Positions 35,076-64,000 of a DNA stretch of 64,000 bases are shown one piece after another (position 1 is the stretch's first letter; each line of letters starts with the position of its first letter). This DNA comes from Marsupella aquatica (Eukaryota; Plantae; Marchantiophyta). The notes beneath the pieces were generated by a model, which saw only the letters and a program-made list of their open reading frames with translations, ran no database searches and was not told where the DNA came from. A program made the position numbers and the translations under genes. Location of the stretch: positions 22,835,884 to 22,899,883 of the forward strand of contig OZ316891.1 of the NCBI GenBank assembly GCA_973895155.1, given 5' to 3'.

Positions 35076-35330
35076 GGGCCGGGACTGGGGGAGTGAAAGA
35101 CGGGGGAGACCGGGGGGCGGGCCGGGGGGAGGGGGTGAGGGGAGAACTCGGGCCGGGCTTGGGGGGACGGGCCAGGGGAGGGGGGAACTCGGGCCGGGGC
35201 CGGGACCAGTGGATTTTGCCGGGCAATTTAGGCCAGGATGCTTGGGCCGGGAGAGGTTTGGGTCTTTGAGGGCCGTGCCGGTTCAGGCTGGGAGATCATG
35301 GCCGGGCCGGGATACGGAGACCGGGACAGT
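35076..35330. repeat. Very G-rich GGCCGGG-repeat tract
   Basis: Many GGG+ runs and repeated GGGCCGGG / GGAACTCGGGCCGGG motifs. Confidence 0.7.
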
Positions 35331-35379
35331 TCGGGTGCCGACTTGCCGGTTGACGGCCTCTAGAGGCTCTATTTGCCGA

Positions 35380-38300: not shown

Positions 38301-38912
38301 AGGTCTACAGCATTAACAACGGGTCGCACCTGGATAGGCAGGGTGATCGGTGGTGGGGATCGGCTAGGCTGGGGCTGAGCCTGAGCCTGAACCTGAGCCT
38401 GAGGCAATTTGGGCACGGGTACCGATGGGCCGGCACCAGTTGTCGATGGTAGGGTCGCCATGAAATTTTGGAGATGCCGATAGAAATTGACCAAGGTGAG
38501 TGTAGACGGCCCTAGCGCTCAGGTAGTGTTAAACTGGTTGTCTATGGAAGCCTGGACCCGAGCGGGGATGTGATCAAAGTGGTTGTAAGTCGATCATGCC
38601 TGGGAGAGTGTAGACCGAGTCTGGAAGCCGAAGGAGCGCTTCCTAGAAGCCGATGTACTTGTCTCCGTCGAAGAAGTACTCGGTAAGTTTGTCGACTCGA
38701 TAAAGCTTGCTCTGGGACGGGAGGCTAAAGTTGAGTATATAAAGGTGACGGCCTGCTACGCGGATGGCTCTCTCATACGCTTGCTCGGTCTCGTATCGGC
38801 GCGGGTTGACGTCTCTTAAGGAGTTGGCCAAGTGACTCCCAATAGACAAGAACTGCATCCAGAATCGCAAGGCCGAACTGGACAAGATCGTGTTAGACAT
38901 CCAGGGGTGACG
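35380..38912 (-). mobile_element. Copy A of the ORF-bearing solo-LTR-like element, 5'-truncated at a copia LTR
   Basis: Starts TGTCACA (the element's GTGACA end on the minus strand). Colinear with 56630-60178 over the ORF and the ~900-bp tail; similarity stops at 38912. Confidence 0.85.
36262..38900 (-). pseudogene. Disrupted copy of the ~880-aa LTR-borne protein
   Basis: ORF fragments 38643-38900, 38261-38494, 37178-38173, 36741-37343 and the tail ending ...SGKRARH* match 56641-59283, with several stops and frameshifts. Confidence 0.9.
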
Positions 38913-39277
38913 TGTTAGGAATTGACTCTAGTTCCCGACATAGTTAGCTTGGCCTTACTAGGTTAGTTTTAACCCTAGAGATTGTTAGGAATTGACTCTA
39001 GTTCCCGACATAGTTAGCTTGGCCTTACTAGGGTTAGTTTTAACCCTAGATTACATTAGGATAAGATCTGCTTAGTTTAGGCCCACTCATCTTGGCCCCC
39101 TTGGGGGGTATAGGCTGGAGGGAGAGCACTCTCTCCCTCATTCTTCACATGTACTCTCATTTGCTATGGAGCCTTCAGGAGTTTCTCCACTCGGGGTGTC
39201 TCATCGGTGTAGCATCTGATTGAGTGTCTCTCATGTTTCCGCATTGTTGTCTAGTTCGGAGCCGACGGTTTCTTACA
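38913..39277 (+). repeat. Ty1/copia 5' LTR, same family as 5430-5531, with its first ~70 bp duplicated
   Basis: TGTTAGGAATTGACTC...TTACA, followed by AG and a PBS; aligns by eye with the reverse complement of 5430-5531. Confidence 0.88.
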
Positions 39278-39279
39278 AG

Positions 39280-39292
39280 TGGTATCAGAGCC
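39280..39292 (+). promoter_or_regulatory. Primer-binding site, tRNA-iMet
   Basis: TGGTATCAGAGCC two nucleotides after the LTR CA. Confidence 0.92.
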
Positions 39293-42753: not shown

Positions 42754-43730
42754 TGTGGAAAGCCTTTTCTGAGGAAGTGTTCTAAAGGAGTATTCAATCT
42801 ACATTTTTCAAAACTTTTGAAACCTTTTAAGCGACAAATGAAGTTATTTAAAGAAGATGAAGGAGTTAAAGCTCTAAACCTCTTTCACATTGAAAGATCC
42901 TTTTTAATCGACAAATCATTTTCATCTGAAGAATCGTTCAGGCGTTTTAAGTGGGATTTTGATTCAACTTCTCTTAAACCGTTTTTCCTCTCCCTTTTTC
43001 CACCCGAGCTCATTAGATAGAATTTAGCTTAGCTAAACTAGTTTAGTCATCATTAAGAGTCTTAACTTAGGAAAGTAGTTGAGACTACTCACCTCTTCAA
43101 ATCTTAAATTGATAGTTAGTTAAGAAGTAGTTTACACACCTTTTCAGATCCCTTTGATCTGTGAGGGAGTATTACAATTGAACTCCTAGGCAAAATTGCC
43201 TAAACATTTTCTTTGGAAATGATTTGTGACCAATACAGGTCTTTTCCTCATGCCAGGTTGGGCTTAGGAGGAAGAATCGCAGAAATGAGAAAATGCACCA
43301 CCAAAATTTCATCGTTATTCATGATTTCCTCGTGTCTTTCTTGCAAATCTTGGAATGAATGAATACATTTTAAGAAAACATTTCTTTGGTTTTGTATGGA
43401 AGAATATGAACAAAACTCTGAAATCTAGAGTTTAGAGAATTGTAGTGAAATCCCTAATGTAAAACCGATCTCTGTTGAGTATAAGGAATTTAGGAATGGA
43501 ACGAAAATCAAACTTCTATTGAGAAAGAGTAATCATCTCAGAATTTCCATATTAGAACGATTGAGCATAAATATTTTGAGTGTTTATATAGTAGTTGTGT
43601 CAAGAAAGAGATTATTAAGATCTCAAAAACCTCAACACCATCATAAATTGATTTCCTTTATTCCCTATGGGAACGAATTCGAGTTTCTAAGACAAGTTTT
43701 ATACAAGTTTCATCTAAAACACTTACCACA
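42754..43730 (+). repeat. 5' LTR (977 bp)
   Basis: TGTGGAAAG...TTACCACA, nearly identical to 53052-54021. Confidence 0.96.
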
Positions 43731-43739
43731 TATGATTTT

Positions 43740-43757
43740 TGGCACCGCTGCCGGGGA
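43740..43757 (+). promoter_or_regulatory. PBS, Athila-type (tRNA-Asp-like)
   Basis: TGGCACCGCTGCCGGGGA nine nucleotides after the LTR, close to the Athila consensus TGGCGCCGTTGCCGGGGA. Confidence 0.85.
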
Positions 43758-44407
43758 ATAAACTAAGAGATCAATTTATGAAGACAGCGGATTGAAGTTT
43801 TGCCAAGAGATTGAAAATTGAAAAAAAATAAAAATTGAAGTTTAGAGACTACGCCAAAATTTTATAAACCGTTCGTGATGGAGGACGATTTGTGGATACC
43901 GCCCTTGGAGTTCAAGTTCGACGTACAACCATTCATCATCAAGAATGCACCCAAGATGTATGTCAAAAGGATGAGGAAGGTGCACCATCAAATCACCAAA
44001 GAGGAAACGAATACCAAGGTTCAGGAAACAGAACCGCCGACCATTGACGCCAAGAAAAAAATCGTCTTGACGAAATGAATTGATAGACGTATCAATTCAT
44101 CGGTAATTAAGATTGATGGGTATCATAGGTTGCAAATGTTTCTGATCTAAGATAGTATTTAAGGATTTGATGTTGTGCGGTAGCAGGAATCTGAATTCCA
44201 ACAACTTCAATTTAAATTGCTGAAGGAGCAACACAAATAAAAACGGTTACAAAATTTGGGGATTTTCAATTGCGCCAAATTAAAGTAACACTGTGGTTTG
44301 TAATTCGGGATCTATGGAGGAAGTCTGATACATATTTTTATTTTTATTTTTTAATGGAGTACGTTCCTGCATGAATAGTTAGAATTATGAAGTAGGGATG
44401 GATCTCC

Positions 44408-46888
44408 ATGAGTACAAACGGTACTAACCCCATAGAGAGAGAGATACGCTATCGAAATAGAGAAGAGAAGAAACGCCTTCAAGCCCAAGCACAACTTGCA
44501 GAGCAAAGGTCAATATCGGCCTCTATAGATCGAGGAAAAGCCCCTATCAACAGAGATAGTCCAGTTCCTTATGTTGATCTTACGAGATATGTACTAGGTG
44601 GTGCCATTGCTGACAAGGAAAGAACGAAGGATGATTTCAATCGCCAAGGAATAGCCGACTCAGAGATTCAGCCCGAATTTTCCACTGTAGCAGAAAAGGT
44701 GAGAAATTTAGAAGAATCAGGTACTATTGACATAGATGTTCTCGATAGTAGTCCTAGAGTAGTAATTAGTTTTGCGATTAGAAACATTTCTTTGCCTCCG
44801 ATTCCATTACGAATAGTCAATAGTCAATTTCTGCAACCCATCGTTAGATTACCTAGCACTTCGTCGTCTGTCATCATGACGACTTCCACAAGATTGAGAT
44901 ATACAGTTTTCAAAGGCAGAGGCCAAGATCCGGAGGATTGGCTGGGTGAATTTTTGTCGACTGCCAAAACTAATAAGGAGAACACCAAACCAGATCTTCT
45001 CCAAATTTTTGAAGGTTTGATGAAGAAAGAGGCCCATAAATGGTACACCTTATCTCTCACTCCTGCAATTCAAGGTAGTTGGCCGGACTTACAAACCGCT
45101 TTTCGGAAGGAATTTTGAGAAGCAGGAGCAACTTTGAGGGTACTTGCTCGGTTGAGGAGAATTTGCATGCGAAAGAAAGACACCCTAAGAACTTATTCCC
45201 AAGAGGTAAGGAAATTGATTTTGAAATTAAGACCTCTACCCAGTGATGACATGCAAACCGAATATTTTGTAGGAGGACTACCACGCGAAATGAATCGGTA
45301 TGTCAGACGAGCACACCCTGCCAACTTAGCAGCAGCGATTGAGGCTGCACAGGAACTTGAGGATACGGAGATGTCCCAGCGGAAAGAGCTCAAGAAAGAG
45401 GAAAAACGAGAGAAGGAACGAGAAAAACGGAAGCGAAAGAAGAAAAGATCCGGATCCAAAAAGAAGGACCTTACTTCTTCGTCCTCCTCATCCTCTTCCT
45501 CCTCAAGTCCTAGTTCAAGTTCCCCTTCACCCTCGTCCTCTTCATCATCAGAAGATGAATCCAGTAGTAATAGGAAAGATCGGAAGAAAATATATCATCC
45601 CACTAATAATGCATTGAAATCGCTTACAGGCGTGAAGAAAACGATCGATGATCTTAGTGGTAAATTTGACAAACTCTCGGTGAATTTGGCAGATAATCGC
45701 CCCAAGCGTAGACCACTGCCTGTGCAAAGACCAAATGTTTGGTGTGCTCGTTGTGGAGAACGAGGCCACTATCCAGTGGAGTGCCCACATATGGGGAGAC
45801 AAGTGCATTACATGGCAGAAGAATGGGATGACCAGGGTTGCTATGATGTGGAGCCTGAAGAGCTTGATTGGTACATGGTCAGTAGTCCTTCATTTCCAAG
45901 AAGACCCATGGCCCCATCAAGACAACCTATGGGTAGGGATATGGGGATGAATACGATGGCCCGATCAATGACCATAAGACCACCAGTCAAACCTCCCATG
46001 GATCCTCCTGGAGGCTACCCCCCTCGCACACAGAGGATCCCAGGAACTTGTTACAATTGTGGGATCGCTGGCCATTACGCTCCTGATTGTCCTTATCCTA
46101 AAGCACCGTATCAATATACCCCCATTTGTGGAAATTGTGGAAGTGAGGGACACTTACCCATTGAATGCCCAAAACCGGTTCAACCCAAACTAATGGTGAA
46201 ATATGTTAAAGATCCAGAGAAGAAGGACGATGCGGAGGTACGAATGATTTTCCTTGAAGATACTCACCAGGTGATGGAGAAGGAGTTGAGCGACGAGGAG
46301 GTTTCATCAGTCTATAGGACTACTACTCGAAGTGCCAAGCGAAAAGCTGAGGAGACAAATCACCAAAGCGATAGTTTAACCTCAAAACTCGCTTTCGGTC
46401 ATCAAGATGCCTCAACCACTTCACGCAAGATCAAGGATAAGGCCAAGATCAGTGATACACCGCTTGGGGGTAAGCAGGTAGAGGGCCTTCCCAAAGAGTT
46501 AGACCCTGCGTATGACAGGTACGACCCAAAGTATTTCATAAGAGATATATCGTCTGAAGCTAATGAATATATTAATCAAGAGATTAAAGCCAATGCACAA
46601 AATATTGCAGTGAAACCCAAGCATGTTTCCTTTGAGGATAAGCAAAATTTTCAGGGAGTTAGAGTAGATGAAAAAGTAGGCTATGACATAGTCAAGGATG
46701 TGGCTAATGCCCAAGCAACGGTCACTTTTGGAGAATTGTTGAGAAATAATGCTTTGTATCGAAAACAGTTAAAACCGCTTCTTAGTTCTAGGCGTAGGAA
46801 ATATAAAATGCCTCCGGTAGCAGTTAATTTTGCTGAAATAGAGGCTTTGGTGCTCCAGATGTTGAACTGCAAATCGATGGCTGTTTAG
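44408..46888 (+). pseudogene. gag (retrotransposon capsid plus three CCHC knuckles), in-frame TGA at 45116-45118
   Basis: FKGRGQDPEDWL...AHKWY...SWPDLQTAFRKEF*; knuckles CARCGERGHYPVEC, CYNCGIAGHYAPDC, CGNCGSEGHLPIEC. Confidence 0.9.
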
Positions 46889-49800
46889 TTAGAAGTGTCC
46901 CTATTGATGGTGGTTCAGGAGTTAATATTATGATAGCACAAACTGCACGTTCGTTAGGATTTACTAAGTATGAATCAACACCTAGAGTCCTTAGGATGGC
47001 AGATCAATCTAGAGTTTTTCCATTAGGGAAATTAGGAAATATTGAAGTTTTAATCGGAGGTTTACCTTTTATTTTGAATTTTCTTGTTATTGACCCTCCC
47101 ACTCAGTCAACTTTCCCTATTTTTTTAGGTCGCCCTTGGCTTTATAAAGCTAAAGTTAAAGTTAACTGGGCTAATAAAACATTCTCCTTCGGCTATCCCA
47201 AAGTCACGTTGTCATGGGATAAGATCCAACATTTGGGGGAAACTATGTCTTCAGACCCAGGTTATACGTCCGATGATAGTACCTCTACAGTTGATTCACG
47301 ATGGGTTGATGCGATGATGAAGCTCAAGGAGGACGAATTCAACTTTGAGGAGGACGTGCGCTACCTCGAAGTCTACACTTACGAAGATGCAGTGCCAGCT
47401 GAGCATGTCAGGAAAGTAGACGAAGTTGGTACTTCCTCAAGGTCTGAACTACTTGCCCCAAATCCTCAAGCGGTGTTACCTCCTAAAGTAATATTCAAAC
47501 CAAAACCGATCGTCGAGATGCCAGAATCGGATTTGGATGAATAGCAATCACAGAAACCTAAGGAAGGGGAAGTAGCCTTAGGAAAAAGCTCTGCATATTT
47601 TCAAGAATCTACTAACATGACTGAGGGTATGGTTAAAAAGAATCAATATGTTAAACTAGAATTAGAAAAGGATAAAATGTTTAACATAGGGAGAAATTTG
47701 GATGATGTTACCCAACAAGCATATAAGGATCTTTTATATGAATATAAAGATATTTTTGCCTGGAGTCATCATGATTTAAAAGGAATTTCTTCTACTTTAG
47801 GTGAACACCATATAGATTTAGTAGAGGGTGCTATACCCATTAGGCAACGTCAGTATAGACTAAATCCCAAGTATTCCCTCATGGTTAAAATGGAATTAGA
47901 TAAATTAAAAGAGGCTGGTTTTATTTACCCTGTCCTAAGTAGTGAATGGGTATCGCCTATAGTTATAGTTCCTAAAAAACCAGGACCGGATGGGAAAGTA
48001 AAAATTAGAGTATGTCAGGATTATAGGAAATTAAATGCGGCCACTAAAAAGGATTTTCATCCCTTGCCATTTACGGATACGATTCTAGATCAAGTGGCTG
48101 GTAAGGAATTGTATAGTTTTTTAGACGGGTTCTCAGGTTATAATCAGGTTTTCATTAGAAAATTGGATCAGTCTAAAACTACATTCACAACTGATTGGGG
48201 CACTTATGCATTTTCTCGCATGCCTTTTGGGTTGTGTAATGCCCCAACAACTTTTCAAAGGCTAATGACCGTTATTTTTCAGGATTACCTGCGTGATTTC
48301 TTGGAGATTTTTATTGACAATTTTTGTGTTTTCAGCAGTGAAAAGGACCATTTGGAGAAACTAAGGAAGACTTTTGCTAAGTGTCGTGAGGCTGGCTTGT
48401 GTTTGCACCCTGAAAAGTGTTTCTTTGGGATGATCGAGGGCATTTTATTGGGTCACAAAATTTCACAGAAGGGCATTGTTGTTGATCATGACAAAATTTC
48501 CGTCATCCTTGCCTTAGAAGTGCCCACTACCTTGCGGGAGTTAAGAGGGTTTTTGGGCTATGTCGGGTATTATAGACGATTTATTGAGGGATACTCCGTT
48601 CTCGCCACACCTCTTAATCAACTCCTTAAAAAGGAGGTGCCTTATGAGTGGAATGAGGCACGAGACAATGCCTTCCTCACCCTCAAACATACGTTGACTG
48701 TAGCTCCAGTTCTTCATGTTTTTGTGGATACCTCTAAGTTTTGCATAGGGATTGAGTTGAGTCAGAAAGATGAGCGTGAAAAGCACCACCCTATTTACTT
48801 TGCCAGTCGTCAACTCAATAGTGCCGAGCAAAATTATTCCACCACTGAACGTGAAGCTCTGGGCATTGTTTTTTCTTGTAAAAAATTCCGTCACTACCTC
48901 CTTGGTTATGACACTGTTTTTCATACTGATCATAACTCTCTTAAGTATCTTTTTAATAAGGCAGATTTGTCAGGCCGAATTGCATGTTGGATTCTACTTC
49001 TTCAAGAATTCCGATTTAAAGTGGAGGTGCGCCCTGGAAAAAGCCATGTCAATGCTGATTACTTATCTCGGTTGGAAGGAGAAGGTGATACCAAAGTGAT
49101 CCCCGATGTGTTTCCTGACGAGGAGTTATTTCACGTGGAGGGTGAACAATCGCTTTATGCTGAGATTGTTTCTTTTCTCATTACTGGTCGACCTCCTCAA
49201 CACATGAATGCGGAGCAGCAGGCAGTTTTTGTACATAAGGCGGGGCCTTACACCCTCATTAAAGGTGTGTTGCATAAAACTATGCCTGACCTTAAGCTTA
49301 AGCGATGTTTGGAGACGCATGAGGTGTCCCGAGTGATTAGTGCATTGCATGAAGGGAATTCGGGCGGACATTTTGCTGTGAACACAACGGTGGCCAAAGT
49401 TCGTGATGCGGGTTACTGGTGGCCCTCCATGCATAAGGATGTACTTGACTTCATTAAAGGGTGTGACCCTTGTCAACGCATGGGGAAACCTTTACTCAGT
49501 GGAAGGTGGCCCTTAGTTCCTATAATGCCTCTTGCTCCCTTTGAAAAATGGGGCATTGACTTTGTGGGTCCCATACAACCTGTTACCCAACGAAGGAGGA
49601 ATCGCTACATCATTGTGGCAACTGATTACGCCACCAAGTGGGTGGAAGCTGCAGCGGTACGGAAGGATGATGCAGCTGTTACAGCATTTTTTCTTTTTGA
49701 CAATATTATCACTCGCTATGGGTGTCCCTTAGAGTTGGTTAGTGATAGAGGCACTCACTTCCTAAATAGCACTATAGAGCTTCTCACCACCACTTACCTG

Positions 49801-50415
49801 ATCAAGCACCGAAAAACTACTCCCTATAACCCTAAGGCAAATGGTTTGACGGAGAGGGCTAATGGCATCATTTGTAAAATTCTCACAAAAATCGTTTCTG
49901 CACATAAAAGTGACTGGGACATGAAGTTAGCATCTGCACTATGGGCATATAGAACTGCCCAGAAAATCACCACAAAAAGAACTCCTTTTTACATGGTTTA
50001 TGGGATGGACTCTATTGTTCCTATAGAGTTCAGTTTGCCCACTGCACGAATTTTAGAAGATAGACGTTTACCCCCTGAAGAAAGCCAATTAATTAGATTA
50101 GCCGAATTAGAACATTTGGAGGAAAATCGTCTTTATGCACTCACCCATACTCATGTTCAGCAAGCACGTAGGAAGATGAATTATGATAAGAAGTTGAAGC
50201 CAACAACCATTAAGGAAGGAGATTTAGTTCTACTATATGATAATTGTTATTTGAAATTTCCAGGGAAGCTCCACACTAGGTGGGGGGGGGCCTATGTAGT
50301 TAAGAATGTTTGGCCTAATGGTAGTTTACAACTTACCACTACTGATGGCGAAGAGTTAATTACTAGAGTCAATGGCCATAGAGTAAAAAAATACATGGCT
50401 CAGCCATTGGAGTAG
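46840..50415 (+). pseudogene. pol (protease-RT-RNase H-integrase), disabled
   Basis: Protease IDGGSGVNI...LGRPWL lies out of frame with gag; TAG at 47542-47544; RT CQDYRKLN, LDGFSGYNQ, MPFGLCNAP, FIDNF; integrase GHF...WWP...CDPCQ, WGIDFVGP, SDRGTHF, NGLTER, KLHTRW. Confidence 0.93.
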
Positions 50416-50833
50416 GGTCGTGAGGTCACTTCCTTATTTAAGGAGGGGATGGCTGCATAGAGATTAGGTGACGATAGAAGTTAAGATAACCATTTTAGGT
50501 TAAATTTTTTATTTTTTTAGCTCTTTCAACAATATCCTTTTAGGGAAAGAGGAAAAATGATTAAGAGAAGGCTGAATTGCTTTTCAACTTTGAAACGGTT
50601 CGATTTGGCGGCAAGGGAGAAATACGTGTACTGAAGCACATACATAGAGGCTAAACGAATACTTCATACCGGCTATAACGAATCAGGCTTGAAAGAAGAT
50701 TGGCAAACGCAAGAAACAGAGGGTGAAGAGTAATTGGGCCTGAATATTGAGCGCGCGAGACAAACGGAGGCCAGGAGCAAGGTGAGCTACCGATGTAGTT
50801 GAGGCGCCCATTGGAAGCGAAGTTTGAGCAGCA

Positions 50834-52576
50834 ATGGTGAAGGAGAAGACGATCGTGATGCCTCCTGAATCTGAGATGTCCAGCAACCAAGAGAATTACA
50901 AGAAGGTGGGCATTGATTCGTTAGTTGACTTTCTCTGGGTGATCAATAATGTCAAGATGGTGGACAAGATACGCCTGCGGAATAAACGTGGGAAGAATGT
51001 GACTGCCCGATCGGATTATACAGCGATTACTGAGCAGACGATGGCGGATTGCTATGGCGTTTCTTTGGTAGGTCTGATTGCAGAAGATTTCACCTCCTCC
51101 CGACTGTTCCATGACATTTGCGAGGACCAATTCTCTGTTGAGTTTGCAAAGGAAGGCTATACACCAAACTCAGCAAAGGATCCAGCACTTTGAGCAATCC
51201 TCCGCTTCATTGTACCGATCTTGACACCCGATAAGCCCAAACGTATTGCAGGCAAGTTAGCTGCCATGATTGTCACCGCCTACGTTAAAGGTAAACCAAT
51301 CAATTGGGCTTGCGTGCTTTTAGATTTGTTTCAGCTGAGGTGCAAGAAAGTGAAGGACGGAATCAATTTGTTTGTGGCGCCCATGTTGTTTCATTTGTAC
51401 AAGTTCGAGAAGAAGCTTTCGATAGTAGAGTTACAGTTTTATGAAGAAGCAGAGGCAAACAGAGCCCTTATTGAAGACCCATCCTCCAAAGATGAAGACA
51501 GTGAGACAGACGAGGATGACGTTGTCAAGATGCCTGTCAAAACTGAGGTTCAGGCATCCCCTATGCGAGTGTTGAGGGGTCGACCACGAGGTTCAACATC
51601 GACCAAGAAACCTCAAGAAGTTTCTGTGATTCAGATAAATTTGGATGATCCTTTGTGTCCCTTGGAAAAACGACTGCGCAGCACTGTGGATGATTTCTGC
51701 CGAGTTAATTCTGTCAATGCTAGTCTGATTAATCAACTACACGCCAAGTTTTCTTGTTCAGGAGATGCTTTATTTGCTAAGATCGAAGACTTACACTCCT
51801 CTTCTACACGAATCGATCAAGAAAGGAAACAGTGGAGAGTGGAGAAACGTGAGCTTGAGAAACGATTGAAGGAGTCGCTCCATGGCTCAGTTTTACCAGC
51901 AATTCAGCAATCGGTTCAGACCCTCTCCACTGCCGCGACTGGAATGGCCCTCTCTGTTACTGAGACTCTTCAGCTTGCTGCACTAACGTCTGAAGGATGG
52001 AAAAACGACAGCAAGAATTTGACAAAAATTGCCTCGGCAATTACCAACCAGAAGAATTTGTTGGACAAGAAGTATGAATCAATTCTGAAATTGATTGGAG
52101 ATTTGCAAAAGTATACTAAAAATCATTTGGAATCCTGTCCAGCCCTTACACCTGACCAGGGAACTTCAGCCGACCTACCAGAAGGAGTAACTCATGGCTC
52201 GAAGGAGGACAAATCAACTGCCATTGCTTCTGGTGAGAAGGATGCTGATCAAAAATTGAGTGTGGGTCCAACCCTAATCACAACAACAGAGGATCTTGCT
52301 TCCCACGCAGTTTCTACCGATCAACGCCAGGCAATTTCTGCAATTGAGGCCACTTGTCTTCTAGTTCCTACCCCTAAACAGCAGTCACCAGTTTCTAATG
52401 TTTATGACAATTTTTCCAACACTGCCCTATTACAATCCATGATTGCTCCCACCACAGATTTAGCAGCACAGACTGATTTACAGGTGGAAGTTGAAGTAGT
52501 TGAATCAGACACTGAGTCTGAAGCAGTGACTCAGACTCGACTTCCAAAGAAGAAGAAATTGAAGCGAAAATACTAG
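50834..52576 (+). pseudogene. Athila-type ORF3 (extra/env-like ORF, coiled coil), in-frame TGA at 51191-51193
   Basis: ORFs 50834-51193 and 51221-52576 are in one frame; KPINWACVLLD...APMLFHLY motif, acidic linker and coiled coil; located between pol and the 3' LTR. Confidence 0.8.
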
Positions 52577-53051
52577 GAGACAGCTTTCAAGTTTTCAGTG
52601 CAGTTAGTGGAAGTATGAGCATTTTCCTTGGATGTATTGCTCTTCTAGTACAGTGATGAAGCGATCTCATTTTGATATTGAAGTATTTTGATGGAGACTT
52701 TCTTCCAGTTTATCACTTCTCTGTACACTGTTGGAGATTTCTTTGATACAGATTTTACCTTTCTTCAATGTCAATTTTATTCCATGTGTTTCTTTCCATT
52801 ACATTTTTCACCCTGAGTTTATTCAAACCTGAAAAGACTCATTGAATCACATCCAAGTTAACTTTTTCTTCACAAGTCAAACCAAGCTCAAGTTCAGACC
52901 TGAAGTCCTCACGTTCAATCTGTTTACTATTTATTTCTTTGAGTAAGAAATGTTATTATGTTTAGCAAGTTTCACCTGAAGCATTTTTTCTGAGAAGAAT
53001 GTTTGAAGACTTACTGTTCGCGGGGTCGCTTCACATTTAAGGAGGGGATTA

Positions 53052-54021
53052 TGTGGAAAGCCTTTTCTGAGGAAGTGTTCTAAAGGAGTATTCAATCTAC
53101 ATTTTTCAAAACTTTTGAAACCTTTTAAGCGACAAATGAAGTTATTTAAAGAAGATGAAGGAGTTAAAGCTCTAAACCTCTTTCACATTGAAAGATCCTT
53201 TTTAATCGACAAATCATTTTCATCTGAAGAATCGTTCAGGCGTTTTAAGTGGGATTTTGATTCAACTTCTCTTAAACCGTTTTTCCTCTCCCTTTTTCCA
53301 CCCGAGCTCATTAGATAGAATTTAGCTTAGCTAAACTAGTTTAGTCATCATTAAGAGTCTTAACTTAGGAAAGTAGTTGAGACTACTCACCTCTTCAAAT
53401 CTTAAATTGATAGTTAGTTAAGAAGTAGTTTACACACCTTTTCAGATCCCTTTGATCTGTGAGGGAGTATTACAATTGAACTCCCAGGCAAAATTGCCTA
53501 AACATTTTCTTTGGAAATGATTTGTGACCAATACAGGTCTTTTCCTCATGCCAGGTTGGGCTTAGGAGGAAGAATCGCAGAAATGAGAAAATGCACCACC
53601 AAAATTTCATCGTTATTCATGATTTCCTCGTGTCTTTCTTGCAAATCTTGGAATGAATGAATACATTTTAAGAAAACATTTCTTTGGTTTTGTATGGAAG
53701 AATATGAACAAAAATCTAGAGTTTAGAGAATTGTAGTGAAATCCCTAATGTAAAACCGATCTCTGTTGAGTATAAGGAATTTAGGAATGGAACGAAAATC
53801 AAACTTCTATTGAGAAAGAGCAATCATCTCAGAATTTCCATATTAGAACGATTGAGCATAAATATTTTGAGTGTTTATATAGTAGTTGTGTCAAGAAAGA
53901 GATTATTAAGATCTCAAAAACCTCAACACCATCATAAATTGATTTCCTTTATTCCCTATGGGAACGAATTCGAGTTTCTAAGACAAGTTTTATACAAGTT
54001 TCATCTAAAACACTTACCACA
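53052..54021 (+). repeat. 3' LTR (970 bp), preceded by PPT AAGGAGGGGA (53039-53048)
   Basis: Direct repeat of 42754-43730. Confidence 0.96.
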
Positions 54022-54029
54022 ACATGCAG

Positions 54030-54414
54030 CAATATGGACCACAAGCGAGGTGTCCATGTGAGCATGACTGACCTCAATGATGGGACATACAAACTGAGCT
54101 GGAGGGAGCTCAATGCTCCTTCCCATGCCCCTCTCATCCAACGCACCACTACAATAGCAGAGATTCAGTCTGACTTCCCTGAGTGGTGCAATGTTATCAA
54201 ATTCTATCGTATTGCACTAAACTCTACTGCTCCCTTGGAGGACCTTTGGATTTGTGCCGCATACAATTATTGTGAGACATTGATGTGTCGGAAGAGGTTC
54301 CAAGTATCTATTCACTTGGCTTTCATTTGTGGATCAACTAGTAGACATATGCTACCCCGCCCCGTGAAAGATGTCATACTTGCTACTTGGCCCAATGAGG
54401 AAGAAGAGGAATGA
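54030..54414 (+). CDS. KolX/P2X7-C-terminal-like ORF, unit 1 (possible first exon at 42686-42705, separated by the Athila insertion)
   Basis: ...CAAYNYC...RKRFQVSIHLAFICGSTSRHMLPRPVKDVILATWP; similar to units 2 and 3. Confidence 0.6.
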
Positions 54415-54655
54415 TAGGATAGGAACCATAATCCTTCCAGATATTTTGTTACTCAAAGTTCTATTTTACGAGTATGATATTGGTTTTTTCATTCCTATGT
54501 TCCAGATTTCATGGCTAAATCATCAATGAGTATTGCAGAATGATGGAGCATGTAAGTCATGCCTTTTGTATTTGACTATATAGAGACAAGTCCACATGAA
54601 AATTTGGCTTTATGCCTATTGCCTAATATGCATGACTCTAGTTTTCTTTGCATAT

Positions 54656-55040
54656 ATGGAAGGTAGACATAGCCAAGTCATCACTCTAGAGTCCCTTCAT
54701 GGTGACACATATGTTGTGTCTTGGCTCAAACATCCAATGGACACTATTGGACAACGTCAATTTTCCATGGGTGAAATTGAAACATACTTTCCTGAATTTT
54801 GCACTGTTGTGCAAGACTGCCTTCACCTCCTCAACCCCGTTATATCTGTTGAGGAGTACTTACGCATGGCCGCTTATAGTTGGTGTGCAACCAAACCACA
54901 CCAGAAAAGATCATTAGTACACAGTTATGTGGCTCGAGCTTGTCATTTGGATGCAAGAGGAAGGCTCCTAGATATGTTGGAAGAGGCTATATGGAACACT
55001 TGGCAGTCGAGGAAGAAGCTTTGTTTGGTTTCACTCCTAG
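54656..55040 (+). pseudogene. KolX-like unit 2, frameshifted near its C-terminus
   Basis: ...FPEFC...LNP...MAAYSWC...KRSLVHSYVARACHLDARGRLLDMLEEAIWNTW, then EEEALFGF in a shifted frame. Confidence 0.55.
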
Positions 55041-55165
55041 ACCCTTATAGGTCCATCATTGCACAAATAATATTCCTAGCTCTTCTCAATGTAACCTCAA
55101 TTGACATACATCTAAATTGTTGTGCACTTGTATAAATGGCATTTTTTTGTCTTATGTTTTGTAGA

Positions 55166-55558
55166 ATCGCCAATAAGACGCCAAGGAGCACTGCCACATT
55201 GACGGTGATGGATCCTGACCTTGAGACAAATCGGTTGAGGTGGATGGATGGGTCTACTCAATGTGAGGAGGTTGTGAGCTTGCTAGAGGTTGAGTGGGAT
55301 CAGCCATTATTGTTCAAAGCAATCGCTGAATGTCACCAGTTGTTGAACCCTGCTATGCCACTCCAAGACCTGCAAATGTGTGCTGCTTATAGCTTCACCA
55401 AAACTGTCAACAAGAAAAAATGGTTTCAAGTGTACACCCATTTGGCTTGGGTGTGTGGGTTTGCAGAGAGAACACGATTACCTCCAACTGTGGAGGAAGC
55501 CATCAAGGAGGCTTGGCATGATGAGGATGAAGTGTTTGTGGGCTTCAGTGAAAACTAA
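55166..55558 (+). CDS. KolX-like unit 3
   Basis: ...LLNPAMPLQDLQMCAAYSF...KKWFQVYTHLAWVCGFAERTRLPPTVEEAIKEAWHDEDEVFVGF*, preceded by a TTTGTAG acceptor. Confidence 0.6.
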   Translation: MANKTPRSTATLTVMDPDLETNRLRWMDGSTQCEEVVSLLEVEWDQPLLFKAIAECHQLLNPAMPLQDLQMCAAYSFTKTVNKKKWFQVYTHLAWVCGFAERTRLPPTVEEAIKEAWHDEDEVFVGFSEN

Positions 55559-56532
55559 ATGTGGCTACACATCCCCCATGGATCCCTAAGGCTGTTGATT
55601 TTATATTGTGGGAATAATAAATAGCATGACCAAAGTATAGAACCAAGAAGGCAAGCCTTTACCAATATTTTGCATACACTCATATAAACATATAAATAAA
55701 TAAATAAATTCTCCTGTTGGAGAAGAACTCTTGCTGGCCGGCAGCAGAAGGGGTTCAAGTCCCCTTGAGAGTGGATACAAAGGTTAAAACTAGTGGGTTA
55801 AAATCATCCCCTAAGGTAAAAACATTATCAAGTAAAAACATTATTAGCCCAATGAAAATGTTCTTCCCCCAATGAAAATGGTACACCATAATCCTAGACA
55901 CAATACACTGATCATATATACAGAGACAACTTTCAAGTCTAAAATACCAAAAGAAAACCATAGAAAGAGACCAAATGAGTATTGCACATAGAGTACGTCA
56001 ATAGAGTAAAAGTTTCAACAATTGACCAAACACTTGGGTGTGACTACCTTTCCTATACCACCAAATGAAAATAAATCCCTGCAACAAAATGGCCATATGC
56101 CCTAGATAAGACAAAATATTCTCCAAATACTTTAGCAAATGAATGGACATATTAAAATGCAATGAAAGTGTAAGTGTGACGCCGCCGGTACGGCGGTTAA
56201 TGAGTGATTCAGTCTAACTGCGCTCGGCACGCGCGTTAGGTGGGTCTTAGGCCGCTATTATTAGCATAACGACAGTATTTAGGTAATCATTAGGGGTAGG
56301 ACATCATTAGGCAATAAGGGGGACTTCAGGTTCGGGCTGGCAGCGGGTCGCTATTCGCACACCCGGGTTACGAGCATGGAGGGGCCCCTCCCTCGGGTCC
56401 GTATAACGAACTTAAGGAAGCGGCCACTGACGCACGCTGACTCAGACCGGCGGAGTGGCCGGTACACCACAAGCGTGAGCGGTTCAACCTATGGGCGTCG
56501 AGGAGACGTCGGGGATCGACAAGCCCTCAAAG

Positions 56533-56539
56533 TATAAAA
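56533..56539 (+). promoter_or_regulatory. TATA box ~100 bp upstream of the LTR-borne ORF
   Basis: TATAAAAGGGG followed by a CT-rich leader, as in LTR promoters. Confidence 0.65.
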
Positions 56540-56640
56540 GGGGAGCCAACCCTTTGTAGTGCACCAGTCCATCAGTCCGCGCGCCAGCTTCGACCCCAGC
56601 TCTCTCGTTCTCTCTAGGTCGCCACTACTATCTCCTCTGA

Positions 56641-59283
56641 ATGTCGCACACGATCCTCTCCAGCTCGGCCATTCGATTCTAGACGCAGTTCCTATCTACC
56701 GGAAGGCACTTGGCCGATTCATTGAAACACGCCAACCCGCGCCGATACGAGATCGAACGCGAATACGAGAGAGCCATCCGCCTAGCAGGACGACACCACT
56801 ACGTCCTTAACTTTGACTACCCGTCTCAGAGCGAGCTTTACCGACCAGCTGAGGTATCTGGGTACTTCTTTGACGGAGACAAATATATCGGGTTCTGGGA
56901 AGCATTGCTTTGGCTTCCGGACGAGGTCTTCAATATCCCGGGTACAATCGACCTGCAGCGACATCACTTCGACCACATCCCTGCCCAGGTTCGGGCAGTC
57001 ATTAACGGCGAGTCCAGTACCAACTGTTCGACAAGGGCGTCCGCACTCACTTCGGAGAACTTCTACCAGCACCTACAGAGCTTCATGGGAACTCGGCCAT
57101 CAACCAACATGACCAACTCAGCCGGACCCGTACCCGTACCCGTACCCGTGCCCATGCAACCTCAGCTTCAGCTTCAGCCTCAGCCGCAGCCTAGCCAAAC
57201 CCCACCACCTATCACCCAGCCAGCACAGGTACGCTCCGTCATCAACGCTGTGGATCTTAGCGATGACGACGAGGCTACCCCACCCTTGACCAGGCGGCCC
57301 AGAGGAACAAGCGCTCGGGGGGCCGACACTATATCGTCCCCACCCCTTGCTCTGACCCCAGGAGCGGCCCCAGCAGACAACATGGTGACCGTGGCCGCCC
57401 CGGGCCTGTTACCAACCGCAGTGGCACTCCCCAGGCCCGATCGGGAGGATGGGGAAGTATCACCTTCCCCGAGTCAGTCACGGGGAAAGAAGAGGAAGGA
57501 ATCCGCCAGTGCATCCGGGTTACCGTTGGCCACGGTAGCCGTAGCCAAGGTAACGATGCATCGCATGGGGGAAAACGTTCACAGCAACATCCTCCATCCC
57601 AAGCATGCGGTGTACCTGAAGACTCAGGGATTTGAGCACCTCGCCTCTCTCCCCTGGAACACTTGCAGGTACTACGGGGAGGACATGACAGAATTCGTCA
57701 AGAATTATGATGACGTACGTCAACAGACTCGGCTGCGGGGAAGGAATATGTCCCTCACAGAAGAACGGCTCAAGATGATCTTCGGGTTACCCGAAGGTGA
57801 CCATCAAGTCGAATCACGGGCTCCCGGGGGCAAGGGGGCCAAGTACCAATCTTCAAGTTTTCCCTCAGAGGGATCAGTAGACAACGGGTTCGTGATGAGG
57901 ACCTGCCTCATGCCCGAGATAGCTGAGCGGCTGGAGTTCCAGAGGTACGCTCTCCACATGATGGAACCCCGGGGGGAGATCTCCGCCGCCCAGGTCATCC
58001 AGGTCGAGAACTATCGACCTAGGAAATGGGCGTCGTACTTCGCTAAGAAATTCCATGAAGAGATGGAGCGGCGAAGGAAGACGCTATACATTGGCGGGAA
58101 GGCGTATTTCGCTAGCCATATCGAAATCATTCTTGAGTGGTACGCCCGGTTTGATCGACGAACCCTTCCTCGCATCAACGTTACAAAGCTGGTCCCAGCT
58201 AGGTGGGTTTTTCCGGCATTGGAGAGACGGCCCCAACTCGAGGCCCGAAGTCCAGTGGACACGCCAGCTTCACCCACCCCACCTCCACAAATAGCTGTAA
58301 TCGTAACCGAGGAGGCGCCGGAGGGGTCGGTCGTCGCAACCGTTGATGCGACCCAACTAGCCGGGCTAAGTACAGAAGTTGGTACGGCAGAGGTCTTACC
58401 CGAACCCGGGTCTCCCAAGGACCCGCCGGTGGCAATTCCGGAGAACCGGACATCGCTGCAGGAGGATACTCCAGCCCCTTCCAACGTTATGTCCCCAGGG
58501 CTGGACGTCACTGCCCCGGCCCCTGCGCGTGTTGATGTCTGCCCGTGCCCAAATCCGGACAGGCACAACTTGGACCACCCGGAACTCTTCGTACAGGGTA
58601 CGTTTCTGAACGGGCTTCTGGGAGATTTCTCTCATCAAATTGCCCGGGATACCGGGGAGTTCATGGCCCGGAAGGTAGCCTGTTTCTTCAATCAGGAGTT
58701 GGTTGCCGCCGTAAAGGCAGGGCGGGCCCAGTCGGAGGCCCTTCAGAGGATAGAGCGGTACCGGGTGGAGTCCGTGTACCTAAAGAACGAAGTGGAGGCT
58801 CAAGAGGCTGAGCTTCTGCAACTACGACCCAAGGTTGCAGCCGCCGATGAGTTGTTAGCAAAGGCGTACGCTCTTACCGCCCTAGCCGAACAGGCCAAAG
58901 CTGGGAACGAGGCCGAGATTACACGACTCCGGAACCAGATTGACAGTTTGAAGAAACAAGCTGTCACCTGGCAGAAAGACCTGGAGGAGGCCAAGGAGCG
59001 AGCCCAGCGGGACGCGACGGAGATAGCCACGCTGCAGGCCGAGATGGCGCGGCTCCAAACCGAGGCCGAGAAGCAGGACCAGCTGGCGAGTAAACTGGCG
59101 AGCGACGCCCAGCAGCTGGAGGAGGCATGTCAGGAGGCAGCAGAGGAGACGGACGCGGCGAGGCGAGAGAACGAATCTCTGCTGGACCAGGTCCAGCTCC
59201 TCAAAGCGGACAATGACAGGCTTCGAAGGCAGCGGGATGGCCGTTCCCATTCGGGCGGCTCTGGCAAGCGTGCCAGGCATTAG
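56641..59283 (+). CDS. ~880-aa protein of unknown function: N-terminal domain, P/Q-rich linker, putative plant-transposon-protein-like core, C-terminal coiled coil; one premature TAG at codon 14 (56680-56682)
   Basis: ATG 56641 gives MSHTILSSSAIRF*TQFL, where copy A has MSNTILSSSALRFWMQFL (TGG>TAG). The frame is then open to 59283. Core: EFVKNY...RLRGRNMSLTEERLKMIFGLP...KWASYF. Confidence 0.85.
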
Positions 59284-60240
59284 CGGCGGAGTAGGAATAG
59301 ATTAGGATTAGGATTGGCTTAGTCAGGCTCTTGGGACAGGCACCTGCCTTAGGTACGGCAGCGCTGCCCTGCTGTCCAGCCTGCGTAGATTAGGATCTTC
59401 TAATAAGACACAGCCGTTTTCCGGCCTGACTGTCAGCTTAGTTAGGACCTTGGTCAGCGAATCTTCGGCGGGAGGACACCCCGTTCCTCGGCTCTTAGTA
59501 TTTAGTGCACCCCTCGATAGAGGGGGGGGGTTTTAGTTTCAGAGTCGGACATCCGTGGGACATGCGGGGAGTCCCGACCTCTGGGAATGACAGAGTACCA
59601 AGGGGAGGGGGTAGGACTAAGCTTGCCGGGCGAGTGCGGAGCCGGGCTCCGTTGTAGTGTGCACCCTTGGCCTTGAACCTGTGCATTCCAGGGCTGTCGT
59701 GTCAACTAAGTGTACGCATATGTTCCCTTTGTAGTAAAATCCTTTCCCATCATTTTTCCTTCGTGTAAATCGAGATTGTATGCATGTGTGCGCATATGTG
59801 TGTGGGTTTCTCGTATATGGGTGGCAGCGCCAGGCCGAACGCACTACCCGAGACGTGCACAGGGTGTAGCCTGCGGGTAAGTGGTTGCGAGCACGGGTTG
59901 AGGACCTGTATCATCGAATCCGGATCGAAGGCGGACAGCACGAAGGCTTAGAAGCCCTTAAGCCGGGGTTGATCCTGCTATCGACTAAGGTACGTTTCGG
60001 CGGCGGAACACAAACCATACCTAGGAGGTGTCCGTATTTAGCAGTATGCGCACTTAGCGCTAGTTTACGAGAATAAGGTGCATTACGTGCTTCCCTTCCT
60101 GCCCGAACCCTCAGATTTACGAGGGATGTGCCCGTCTAAGCTGAAGTCTGAGTTAAGGCCGAAGCCTACGACGTGACAGTAAGTAATACCATAATTCAAC
60201 TATCAGATACACACCTGACTGAACATCCCTGGATCATAGT

Positions 60241-63200
60241 TTAGGTGCCTCCATACATGCGTTGACTAATTGCATCTTTCCAGTTAGTGGTCCTCTCCAC
60301 CAACAGTCTACTACGAGCTGGCCTATCTCTCACAACAGTATTACCGGAATACGAGGAACTATCTTCCATACAGGGCGGCCAATGTTCTCATTCCAATCCA
60401 TGAATGCACACATCAAACGAGCCTCATGAGATGCTGGAAAGTGAATGCATTTTGTGGCAAAATTTCCCATCACTGAATGAAATGTCTCGGATAAGAAGTT
60501 CTCTCTAGCCATGGTGTACCATTGCATCTTTCCTGGAGTGATGTACTTTGCCATGAATCCCTTCATGGCAACATGGGTTGCTGAGTCTGCCCCAAACACC
60601 AAAATATTTTAACAGTGTAACTAATGATAAACAAACCACAATAGCATTGAAATGTAGATGTCCTCAACTTGAGAACTAACCTCTTGCATAATACAAATCC
60701 AATTGGGTTCCTTCTTCTTCTCCAATATGGTGGCAGGGCCGGTCCGGTAGTGTCAAACACACTATGTGTATACCAGCCCAGTGATTTGCACAATTGGCTA
60801 TCTCAAATGCTAGTGATTCAGCATCACCCCCTCTGCATAAGAAGAAAATCACCATTAATAAATTTGTACAGTTGTGAAAAGGACAAAACATTTCAGTGTG
60901 AAAGTCATATTTTTTTCAATGTAGTAAAATACTTACGATGTTTTGCACCTCCTGCAACAAATATAGAACCAAGTCTTGAACTTCATGGACATGTTGTGCT
61001 GACTAAGCTCTGGATACTTTAGTCCACGGGAAATGATCGGCATCAATGTGTCCTCAATTGGTAGTCCCCTCCAATCTCCCACCTTGTGGACGAGGTCAAT
61101 TTTCCTGAACTTAGATAACCCTCTTACCCCTTTTGCCTTCAACCAATCTTACATCTGCTTGACAGTAGCACTTTGCAATTGTGACCTACACAATCATCCC
61201 AAGCATTTAGTGGAAGCTAAAAGTGCATACAAAATTGTACACTCAGTTCAAATTATAAAATTGAAACTAAGAAGACTTACAAACACTAACCTGGTTGTTG
61301 CAGTATCAATGTCCACTGTCAAGGTAAATGTGCACTTCACCAACTTGTCCACAAATTTCCTGACAAGATTTTTGGCTTGTACCACAAATCTTTTTGATTC
61401 ATCAACCCTAGGTCTCGAAGGATAGCATCCACAGCAGAGTTATCATCATGGATGACCTGAAAATTACAAGATAGTGCCAAGGTAATTAGCACTAAACTAT
61501 GTATTTTACTGACAAAGGAAAACAACAACAAAATAAAGGAAAACAATAAAGACATTATGAATTTGATAAAGTAGAACACTAACCTCTTTGATTACAATTC
61601 CATTGTCTCTCAATCTTTCCAAACCTTTTCTGGTCCCTAGTTCCTCCATCAACCATGAATTGGGTTCCTCTTTTTTGGTCGTAGTCACCATTTCTATAAC
61701 CTTACTATCCACAAGGTTGATAATTGAAACAGTACCATGATAACCACTACGCGAGGAGTCCCATCGAGCATCTAAGTACACGACAAGACCAGGATCTGTC
61801 CAAAACCCCAACATGCCAGTATCAATAAATAGATAAGTATTTGTAAAGCACAACAAATTAAACAGGAAGCTAATTATGCTCAAGAGACAAACAATAACAC
61901 AATGAGAGTTAGTACTTACCAGCTTGAAGGTCAACCCCACACTGGATATCATGTCTCAAATTTTGCCACAACTCTTTTTTGTTTTCCTCCCATTGTTGAT
62001 TGACAGCTTTAATCCAACCAACCCCGGGACGCCCTCGACCTGTCTGAAAGTCATACCAATGCTGCGATGTAGGGACATGCAAACCTAGGTGTGATGCAAC
62101 AGATGACAGTGATGTATATGTGAGCCCGACACATAATGTAGAGTGATACAACTTGGTGGTAACCAAAGGTGAACCCCTTCTTGACTCCATCTCTCCAGTA
62201 AGAAAAGTCCAACCATGTCCCTCCAGCCCACAACTAATCCGTATAGACCACAACTGTTGTAACTCCCTCACATGATGTACTGTAGGGGTCAAAGGGCATC
62301 CGGATATATGACATCTAGGTAGTAGTTGCTCCACAAAAGTATGCACCAAATGGCGCTCTATGAAACCAACTGTGGCAGGCTCACGGGGTCGGAATCTTGT
62401 TTTTGGAACCTCTTCATGAGCCTCACAATGTTTCACATGACTAGGAGGGATCTGAGAGTCCATCACTACAAGAGGAGGGATTTGAGAATCCATGACCTCA
62501 ACTTGAGAAAGTTGGGAGTCCGTCACGTCAACAGGCACCACTTGAGAATCCATTACCGCCGAGGGAAGCGACTATGAATCCTCAATGCAAGTTGTTTGAG
62601 TCTGGTACATGACCAATATATAACACATAACAGACTAAGTATGCTTGCAAACTTTTCCTGTAAAAAATATTAAAATATAAAAGTTGTAAGTTAAAATACC
62701 ATAAAGTTACATTACATACCTGGCCCCCTAGAGCAGCCACCACATCTGGATCATCATTTCCAAAGATGATGTCATCGTCACCAAAAGATCCCTGGATAAT
62801 GTCCTCAGGCCATTCATTGTAAGCCTCAAATACTCTCCCACTCTGGTGCATTCCCTATGGATTAGATACAAGAGTTGGTGGTCAAGGAAAAACAAAAATT
62901 CATGAAATGGACAAACAATAACATTGAAGACTCAGGATAGATTAGAGAATATAGATAAAAAACACTACCAACTTAAAATGCTGATGTATGGTGAAAGAAA
63001 GGACAGAGGAAAAAGTAAACTTGGGAAAGAAGTGTGAGTGAGAATGGGAAAGAAATGTGAGTGAGAATGAAAAAAATAAAGGAGGCATTAGACCTGAGAC
63101 TGGTCAAAATCCATGGGTCCCCTCTCATGTCGTGAGTGTTGTTCCTCGTCCAAAGACTCCTGGTGATGTTTGACTTGAAAAAGTTAGTACATTAAATTGT

Positions 63201-63672
63201 GAAAACTGAAATTGCAAGATTAGATAAAACCAGCAAGTTATACAATGAAATAGAATAGGAAAGAACCTCTTACATGGAGGGAGTTGTTGGCCGGGACTGA
63301 ATTGAGATCGAACATGTGTTCTTCAGGTACACCAAGGGGTTCTTCATTCTCCACCCCAAGTGGCAATGCCTCACTTGCAAGTGTTGCTGCCTGGACCACT
63401 TGCCGTCTCTTCAACTCGTGTATCGCAGCACTGCACTTGTCAAGTAACCAATGAATGACTGTAGCATGGGTGGTATTCAAGTCATCTCCCAATAAAAGTC
63501 TAAGTTCCTCCCACTCATCCCATCGCTCCACTGGGACCCGGATTGGTGGCTTGGCATGCGGTCTCATCCTCTTCCTATACTCCATGTCATCACTCAGGTA
63601 CTTTGGTCTTGAAGGACCACCGCCCCGGGGAGGACGTTTACGCCGCCTACTAGGAAGGTCAGTCGGCTCCAT
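60241..63672 (-). pseudogene. Intron-containing Kolobok-like DDE transposase, about nine exons, with frameshifts and stops
   Basis: YLDARWDSSRSGYHGTVSII...SWLMEELG...L...GIVIKEV|IHDD...QKDLW(Y/H)K...LSETFHSVMGNFATKCIHFPASHEARLMCAFMDWNENIGR matches the Kolobok D-D-E pattern (DGRxDS / TD / DxWH / ExFHS...AR..LA..DxNxN.xR). Ends ...QRMYGGT* after a frameshift. Confidence 0.78.
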
Positions 63673-63695
63673 CCTAGACACTGTGTCAGCCAAAG

Positions 63696-63985
63696 TACTA
63701 AAAAAACTAATGTATTATCTAGATAAAAATTGCAAAACCACTAAAAATTGCAAAAACCACAAAAAGAGTGTACTAAAAAAAACTAATGTATTACCTAGAT
63801 AAAAATTGCAAAATTACTAAAAATTGCAAAAACCACAAAAATAGTGTACTAAAAAAAACTAATGTATTACCTAGATAAAAATTGCAAAATTACTAAAAAT
63901 TGCAAAAACACAAAAAAGTGCACTACGAAAAACTAATGTATTACCTAGACAAAAATTGCAAAACCACTAAAAATTGCAAAACCAA
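63696..63985. repeat. ~75-bp AT-rich tandem repeat, about four copies, upstream of the transposase
   Basis: GTACTAAAAAAACTAATGTATTACCTAGATAAAAATTGCAAAA... starts at 63696, 63770, 63846 and 63920. Confidence 0.9.
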
Positions 63986-64000
63986 AGGAAAGAAGGACCG

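Follow-up and report, generated by a model that had tools for sequence, protein, structure and literature searches.

Within a 64,000-nucleotide window of the liverwort Marsupella aquatica (contig OZ316891.1, positions 22,835,884 to 22,899,883), to which all coordinates below refer, we analysed a 4004-bp unit at 56175-60178 that lies between two copies of a 5-bp target-site duplication (TSD), carries one long open reading frame (ORF) and is read here as the putative solo long terminal repeat (LTR) of a retrotransposon. A second, decayed copy of the unit (copy 2) lies on the opposite strand of the same window. The features of both, including the predicted resemblance of the gene product to VANC21, the regulator of an Arabidopsis transposon, are as follows.

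56175-60178, plus strand: whole unit, 4004 bp, TG...CA, GC 0.57, CpG observed/expected 0.89, delimited by its ends, contig depth and composition; putative solo LTR.
56170-56174, plus strand: left TSD copy, GTAAG, read from the sequence and present as a single copy in empty-site contigs.
60179-60183, plus strand: right TSD copy, GTAAG, read from the sequence.
56175-56532, plus strand: 5' non-coding arm, rich in TTAG by count, putatively U3-like.
56533-56539, plus strand: TATA box, TATAAAA in the sequence, followed by a pyrimidine patch; putative promoter.
56641-59283, plus strand: gene of 880 codons, defined by its ORF and interrupted by a single stop (codon 14), where copy 2, which shares the start codon, has a sense codon.
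56683-57084, plus strand: conserved N-terminal domain, about 134 aa, aligned in the homologues P0044, P0056, P0047 and P0026; ratio of non-synonymous to synonymous divergence (dN/dS) 0.19, predicted local distance difference test score (pLDDT) of the model 43.
57541-58245, plus strand: core domain, basic, isoelectric point 9.3, with a predicted VANC21 fold (model, fold matches, dN/dS 0.075).
58780-59270, plus strand: predicted coiled coil (weak Pfam coiled-coil matches below the cut-off) ending in a KRARH-type basic motif, a putative nuclear signal; the same tail occurs in P0044.
59284-60178, plus strand: non-coding tail, 895 bp, with 74% identity to copy 2 in the copy comparison.
35380-38910, minus strand: copy 2, decayed, 75% identity, 6 stops among the aligned codons and several frameshifts.

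As the first-pass annotation of this sequence had described, the unit runs from TGTGACG, starting at 56175, to CGTGACA, ending at 60178, and stands between perfect 5-bp copies of GTAAG; inside it are a TATA box, a ~2.6-kb ORF that a single stop (TGG>TAG) interrupts at codon 14, and a tail of ~900 bp. The two terminal 7-mers form an inverted pair with 6 of 7 positions matching, the TATA box lies at 56533, the ORF has 880 codons and the tail measures 895 bp. The same annotation had seen no repeated termini, primer-binding site (PBS), polypurine tract (PPT), gag or pol. The first 470 bp and the tail contain no direct repeat of each other (best local match 11 bp), BLAST aligned no inverted repeat longer than 7 bp between the ends, and neither gag nor pol lies inside the unit. 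No PPT occurs at a terminus, all purine runs being internal, and no PBS adjoins an end, the single PBS-like word (56624, minus strand) sitting away from both. TG...CA ends with a short inverted repeat occur together with a 5-bp TSD, within the 4-6 bp expected, and with neither an internal region nor a terminal direct repeat, as in a solo LTR. TSDs of 5 bp are reported for most LTR elements and plant LTRs are reported to reach ~5 kb (PMC6839031, PMC6317226). A full Athila-like element in the same window likewise has TG..CA ends and a 5-bp TSD, and such a TSD would fit copia elements as well as gypsy elements.

The first-pass annotation had taken this combination of ends and TSD to be the mark of a solo LTR. 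As a sign in itself the combination is not beyond chance, because 37 of the 2275 TG..CA pairs with 5-bp direct flanks that lie 200-6000 bp apart within the window match at least 6/7 in inverted orientation; the insertion, in contrast, is real. Empty-site contigs in two of the four runs compared (X1 and X2) join 56169 directly to 60179 and skip 4009 bases, that is 4004 + 5, with 24 letters on the shorter side of the joint in X1 and 43 in X2; since the insertion target is itself multi-copy, these contigs may be paralogues of the repeated target rather than alleles, and one of the runs may itself be the source of the window. Summed contig depth, which is not a copy count, rises at both ends of the unit from 45-828 to 62,000-475,000 (X1, X2), which shows that 56175-60178 belongs to a high-copy family, and GC and CpG content also step at both ends. 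In addition, copy 2 is colinear with the unit, beginning shortly ahead of the start codon and reaching the terminal CA, and has the same gene, tail and 3' terminus. The boundaries of the unit are confirmed by the empty site, the depth step, the GC/CpG step and the terminus of copy 2.

These observations bear directly on the idea that the unit arose by deletion from an element whose LTRs were short and whose ORF was internal, or that its ends are paired by chance. While the end signature does arise by chance 37 times in the window, the ends share no direct repeat, the empty site is shorter by exactly 4004 + 5 bases, depth is high from end to end and a copy at a synonymous divergence (dS) of ~1 is colinear to the same terminus, so that we regard this idea as very improbable. 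The first-pass annotation would have given up its reading if full-length relatives had short LTRs with the ORF internal, or if no other copy shared these termini with a TSD of its own; neither objection was borne out. The unit has no short LTR pair, and its termini recur in 13 contigs of X1 whose letters before 56175 differ (agreement 0.43), in one X2 contig joint (59190 to 56174) that represents the nested 5' end of another copy, and in the 3' end of copy 2. Parts of the unit are present in seven of the ten runs listed, from five organisms, and four runs contain at least half of the unit's words; no relatives were found in prokaryote genomes, viral contigs or metagenome contigs.

Copy 2, overlooked by the first-pass annotation, lacks the 5' 456 bp, a copia-type LTR standing in their place at 38913, and the missing arm is absent from the 64-kb window. 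The tails of the two copies have six identical blocks of 14-22 bp in common, and a U-rich, 3'-end-like stretch lies in the tail of the unit near 59728. A GC-rich stretch past the 3' end of copy 2 was considered as a PBS or internal region and ruled out, being a separate high-depth target repeat (35065-35378, 70% GC, GGCCGG-type units); other contigs run past 35378 with different letters, and beside this 3' end there is no self-primer match of at least 8 bases. Both copies in the window are solo-like.

The copia-type LTR at the lost arm of copy 2 (38913-39300, plus strand) has a 70-bp duplicated start. Its PBS is presumably of the Met type, judging from its motif.

The gene begins at 56641, the first ATG after the TATA box, and its frame is open to 59283 except at codon 14. 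The order of its parts is an N-terminal domain, a Pro/Gln linker, the core with its predicted VANC21-like fold, a second linker, a small domain, the coiled coil and a basic C-terminus. Between the unit and copy 2, dN/dS over 849 codon pairs is 0.16 (bootstrap 0.13-0.20) at dS ~1, and third positions account for 361 of the 638 mismatches; by part, the ratio is lowest for the core (0.075), intermediate for the remaining domains (0.11-0.19) and highest for the linkers (0.23-0.42). Judged from this codon pattern, the ORF has been kept by purifying selection. The stop at codon 14 is a sense codon in copy 2, where the start codon is the same, and is absent from nearly all the depth in X2, X5 and X6; in X1, codon 14 differs from the stop in only 1,324 of 4,183 depth (57% of the depth read).

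Pfam assigned no family to the ORF and returned only weak coiled-coil matches below the cut-off; the profiles PF10536 (plant mobile domain, PMD) and PF03078 (Athila ORF-1) did not match, and the scan of the other 28 members of the core alignment covers the 25 families listed of 55. A search with the core recovered 42 homologues at E<=0.001 among 1.84 billion representatives; names were looked up for 20 clusters, giving Calypogeia fissa for 7, 'hypothetical protein' for 2 and no name for 11. In the homologue P0044 (906 aa, 32% identity) an N-terminal domain, a core, a coiled coil and a basic tail follow one another as they do here, and the N-terminal domain is also kept in more distant homologues. 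The homologue tree (28 of 29 rows, one short row having been dropped) has several deep clades, which points to an old and diverse family of mobile genes. Word-index searches found no homologue with the whole ORF, two homologues already in the set with the profile, and none among proteins of 1303-3720 aa, the last being weak evidence against a fusion to gag-pol.

One Calypogeia contig has two near-identical split copies of a homologous gene (P0050/P0011 and P0051/P0049; CAM6101869/70 and CAM6101879/80). Their accession numbers are ten apart and in mirror order, which suggests that the copies are inverted and not an LTR pair, if the numbers follow position.

The first-pass annotation had offered no lead on the protein and had proposed a Foldseek comparison, which yielded a VANC21-like fold. 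The model of the 235-residue core, built from an alignment of 29 rows, has a pLDDT of 89, and its top Foldseek match is VANC21 bound to DNA (9lnj; probability 0.99, E 0.022, TMq 0.54), the next match having a probability of at most 0.03. A structural aligner gave VANC21 Z scores of 8.2 and 8.4 over 205 residues with root-mean-square deviations (rmsd) of 4.0-4.1, the next of 48,161 chains scoring 2.5; a viral structure library contained no match at E<=0.001. VANC21 is thus the one clear match of the predicted core among solved structures, of moderate strength and spanning the whole domain, and we consider it highly probable that the core is truly kin to the VANC/PMD fold. The predicted fold and the second, 75%-identical copy are both new relative to the first-pass annotation.

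VANC21 is described as recognising a short motif that lies in non-coding stretches of its own transposon and as removing methylation in trans (PMC5735166, PMC10398659), and VANC as structurally homologous to MAIN, a PMD protein (PMC13547354). PMD-type domains are in turn reported as common cargo of Ty3/gypsy elements, occurring for example in 57% of Ogre (PMC5418596, PMC6317226). As the PMD is frequent gypsy cargo and VANC is kin to MAIN, a retrotransposon protein with a VANC fold is to be expected; the unusual part is the place of the gene between both ends of an LTR-like unit. Extra ORFs of plant retrotransposons are placed in the internal region in the descriptions cited (PMC7264820, PMC6317226, PMC3485330, PMC11728184, PMC6431247). 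A literature search, with most subscription papers and supplements outside it, turned up neither a plant LTR with a gene inside it nor a liverwort protein of VANC fold.

Taken together, we propose, with a probability of roughly 0.55, that the unit is a solo LTR with an accessory gene, whose predicted product is a nuclear DNA-binding regulator of VANC/PMD fold that would help to keep its family transcriptionally active. That the unit is a solo LTR is, as a claim by itself, probable. A full element with two 4-kb LTRs would have been inserted by integrase, and recombination between the LTRs would have left the unit. The TATA box at 56533 would drive the gene from any LTR, paired or solo, with the transcript ending in the tail; because the TATA box stands ahead of the ORF, the gene's place would be R-like, downstream of the start site, and not in U3, barring another promoter within the tail. 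The basic core might then bind short motifs in the non-coding arms, the coiled coil might oligomerise, and open gene copies might act in trans on the family. With its basic core, its coiled coil and its basic C-terminus the protein has the features expected of an oligomer that binds DNA in the nucleus, and each solo repeat would probably act by itself as a complete regulator of the transposon family to which it belongs. The weakest step of this mechanism is anti-silencing, which, as against another nuclear job, we consider somewhat less likely than not. It is doubtful, though conceivable, that a liverwort lineage moved a VANC-like anti-silencing gene into the LTR, that solo LTRs unsilence the family in trans and that this use of the fold predates the dicot VANDALs.

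Several observations, besides the chance frequency of the end signature, weigh against the proposed regulator-bearing solo LTR. Neither copy adjoins a second unit in pair, a PBS, a PPT or gag-pol in the sequence at hand, no PPT or PBS stands at a terminus among the loose contig ends listed, and none of the contigs listed bridges 35379/35380. Accordingly, the earlier proposal of a gene inside the LTR stands as far as a repeated insertion with fixed ends and a conserved gene is concerned, but the paired units around gag-pol that it implies were not seen beside either copy, and no parent element was found that would place the family in Ty3/gypsy. The gene copy at 56641-59283 is itself interrupted at codon 14. 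The agreement in fold is of moderate strength (Foldseek E 0.022, rmsd 4, 8-12% identity), at a level that the tool calls common for best matches; VANC21 did not come up when PDB sequences were searched with a profile, DUF1985 and DUF287 in Pfam matched neither the ORF (E 0.1) nor the core (E 10), and the core has no Pfam match to the PMD up to E 10. In addition, a match of predicted fold cannot tell VANC-like from MAIN-like, and MAIN is described as acting in silencing, not against it (PMC5418596). The arms of the unit yielded no dense array of motifs specific to the family, and nowhere in the unit does the VANC21 motif occur. TTAG richness is likewise common to unrelated LTRs in the window: TTAG occurs 19.5 times per kb in the 5' arm and ~20 in both arms, compared with 17.4 and 24.6 in two unrelated LTRs and 8.7 in the window. 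CpG is also high (0.90) in a copia fragment at 1-1300, so that CpG richness is not specific to the family and was rejected as a sign of anti-silencing.

The sequence GTATTTAG occurs five times in the window, four of them within the non-coding arms of the two copies in gene orientation (56275, 59498 and 60034 on the plus strand, 36049 on the minus strand). One of its sites falls inside a 21-bp block identical in both copies, and at two sites it has YAGTATT in common with the VANC21 motif; it was chosen after the fact and serves as a lead only.

Some of the same evidence can be accommodated if the unit is a gene-bearing solo LTR but its protein is an Athila-ORF1/Ogre-PMD-like factor with another nuclear job, such as RNA export, chromatin tethering or self-repression. 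The PMD fold is reported in MAIN, which silences, and in accessory proteins of gypsy elements to which no function has been assigned (PMC5418596, PMC13547354, PMC6317226), and the want of a dense family-specific motif array would be in keeping with such a job. On the other hand, the basic core keeps K/R columns conserved among homologues, the family is CpG-rich and reaches high copy numbers in more than one organism, and a globular core combined with a coiled coil recalls the architecture given for VANC21 (PMC13547354); we consider another nuclear job unlikely.

Alternatively, the unit might not be an LTR but a complete non-autonomous DNA-moving element with a regulator gene, mobilised in trans by an integrase-like transposase of Ginger/GingerRoot type, an alternative already raised, as an LTR-less integrase-mobilised gene unit, by the first-pass annotation. 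Both window copies lack an internal region, the first ~40 bp of the unit weakly mirror the last ~40 bp (p ~0.004 when the null keeps the first 7 bases constant, for one of six lengths tried), the only solved relative of the fold comes from a DNA transposon, and integrase-type DNA transposons are reported from clubmoss (PMC6839031). However, GingerRoot is described with terminal inverted repeats (TIRs) of 100-150 bp and a 6-bp TSD, and Ginger1 and Ginger2 with TSDs of 4 and 6 bp (PMC6839031), whereas the unit has a TSD of 5 bp, and BLAST aligned no inverted repeat of more than 7 bp; by this comparison, a 5-bp TSD without long TIRs fits LTR elements better than GingerRoot/Ginger. The arms are also as rich in TTAG as the true LTRs of the window. 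Moreover, solo LTRs may outnumber full elements, 2.6 to 1 in rice Retrosat2 (PMC3485330), so that two solo-like copies out of two are unremarkable. We regard a stand-alone DNA element as rather improbable.

Among known systems, the extra ORFs of plant Ty3/gypsy elements, such as Ogre with PMD-A (pfam10536) and Athila ORF-1, likewise represent a conserved non-enzymatic accessory gene on a retrotransposon-like unit (PMC6317226, PMC5418596, PMC7264820), and the fold kinship of the present protein to the PMD would run through VANC21. These ORFs are described as internal, 5' or 3' of gag-pol, whereas the gene described here stands between integrase-type ends with no internal region. VANC21 of VANDAL21, an Arabidopsis Mutator-like element (MULE; PDB 9LNJ/9LNK), resembles the present protein in the predicted core fold over 205 residues, a basic surface, a coiled coil and a mobile carrier (PMC5735166, PMC10398659, PMC13547354). 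It differs in sequence (8-12% identity), and here the gene is intronless, the carrier is a TG..CA unit with a 5-bp TSD and not a MULE, the single ORF has no transposase gene beside it, no tandem motif arrays were found and the host is a liverwort, while VANC is called dicot-specific and derived from cellular MAIN in dicots (PMC13547354). Retrosat2/RIRE3/RIRE8 (Tekay) likewise have long LTRs (>3 kb), many solo LTRs and an extra ORF of unknown function, and the Retrosat2 ends, TGTCACA...CGTGACA, are similar to the 7-bp ends of the unit (PMC3485330). Tekay ORF0, by contrast, is described as lying upstream of gag-pol and apart from the LTR (PMC3485330). GingerRoot/Ginger elements are alike in integrase-type ends, occurrence outside seed plants and cargo genes (PMC6839031), but none of their 100-150 bp TIRs, 4- or 6-bp TSDs and DDE transposase is present in the unit, which has a 7-bp pair, a weak 40-bp similarity and a 5-bp TSD.

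A gene within or across an LTR is familiar from retroviruses, where sag of mouse mammary tumour virus and nef of human immunodeficiency virus overlap the LTR in U3. These genes are about a third of the size of the present one or less, and in the present unit the entire ORF follows an internal TATA box.

Formation of solo LTRs is usually seen as the host's deletion of retrotransposon genes; a regulator borne by the LTR would outlast such deletion, and the gene would be multiplied at each recombination. The fold link may also offer a testable function for accessory ORFs of retrotransposons, whose role is called unknown (PMC7264820, PMC11728184), and a VANC-fold protein in a liverwort mobile unit would point to a mobile pool much older than the dicot origin from MAIN (PMC13547354). 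If no parent element exists, the unit would be a new kind of non-autonomous mobile gene.

The Athila-like gypsy element mentioned above is full and young (42754-54021, plus strand), with LTRs of 977 and 970 bp that differ by 2 substitutions in 970 aligned bases, a TSD ACATG, a PBS and gag-pol in pieces. Its extra ORF (460 aa, 51194-52576) has no Pfam match and is unrelated to the gene of the unit (best E 1.1, no match to the core profile), as are its LTRs to the unit. The unit's own target (54030-56169 and 60184-64000) is an AT-rich, CpG-poor multi-copy repeat, presumably, from its motifs, a Mutator-like DNA transposon; three related short ORFs lie at 53938-55555. A GC-rich LTR-like piece at 39800-40400 has a TATA box near 40242. 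Host genes occupy 12200-25300, with a spliced HD-domain gene on the plus strand, presumably RelA/SpoT-like, and exons of another gene on the minus strand near 23100-25300.

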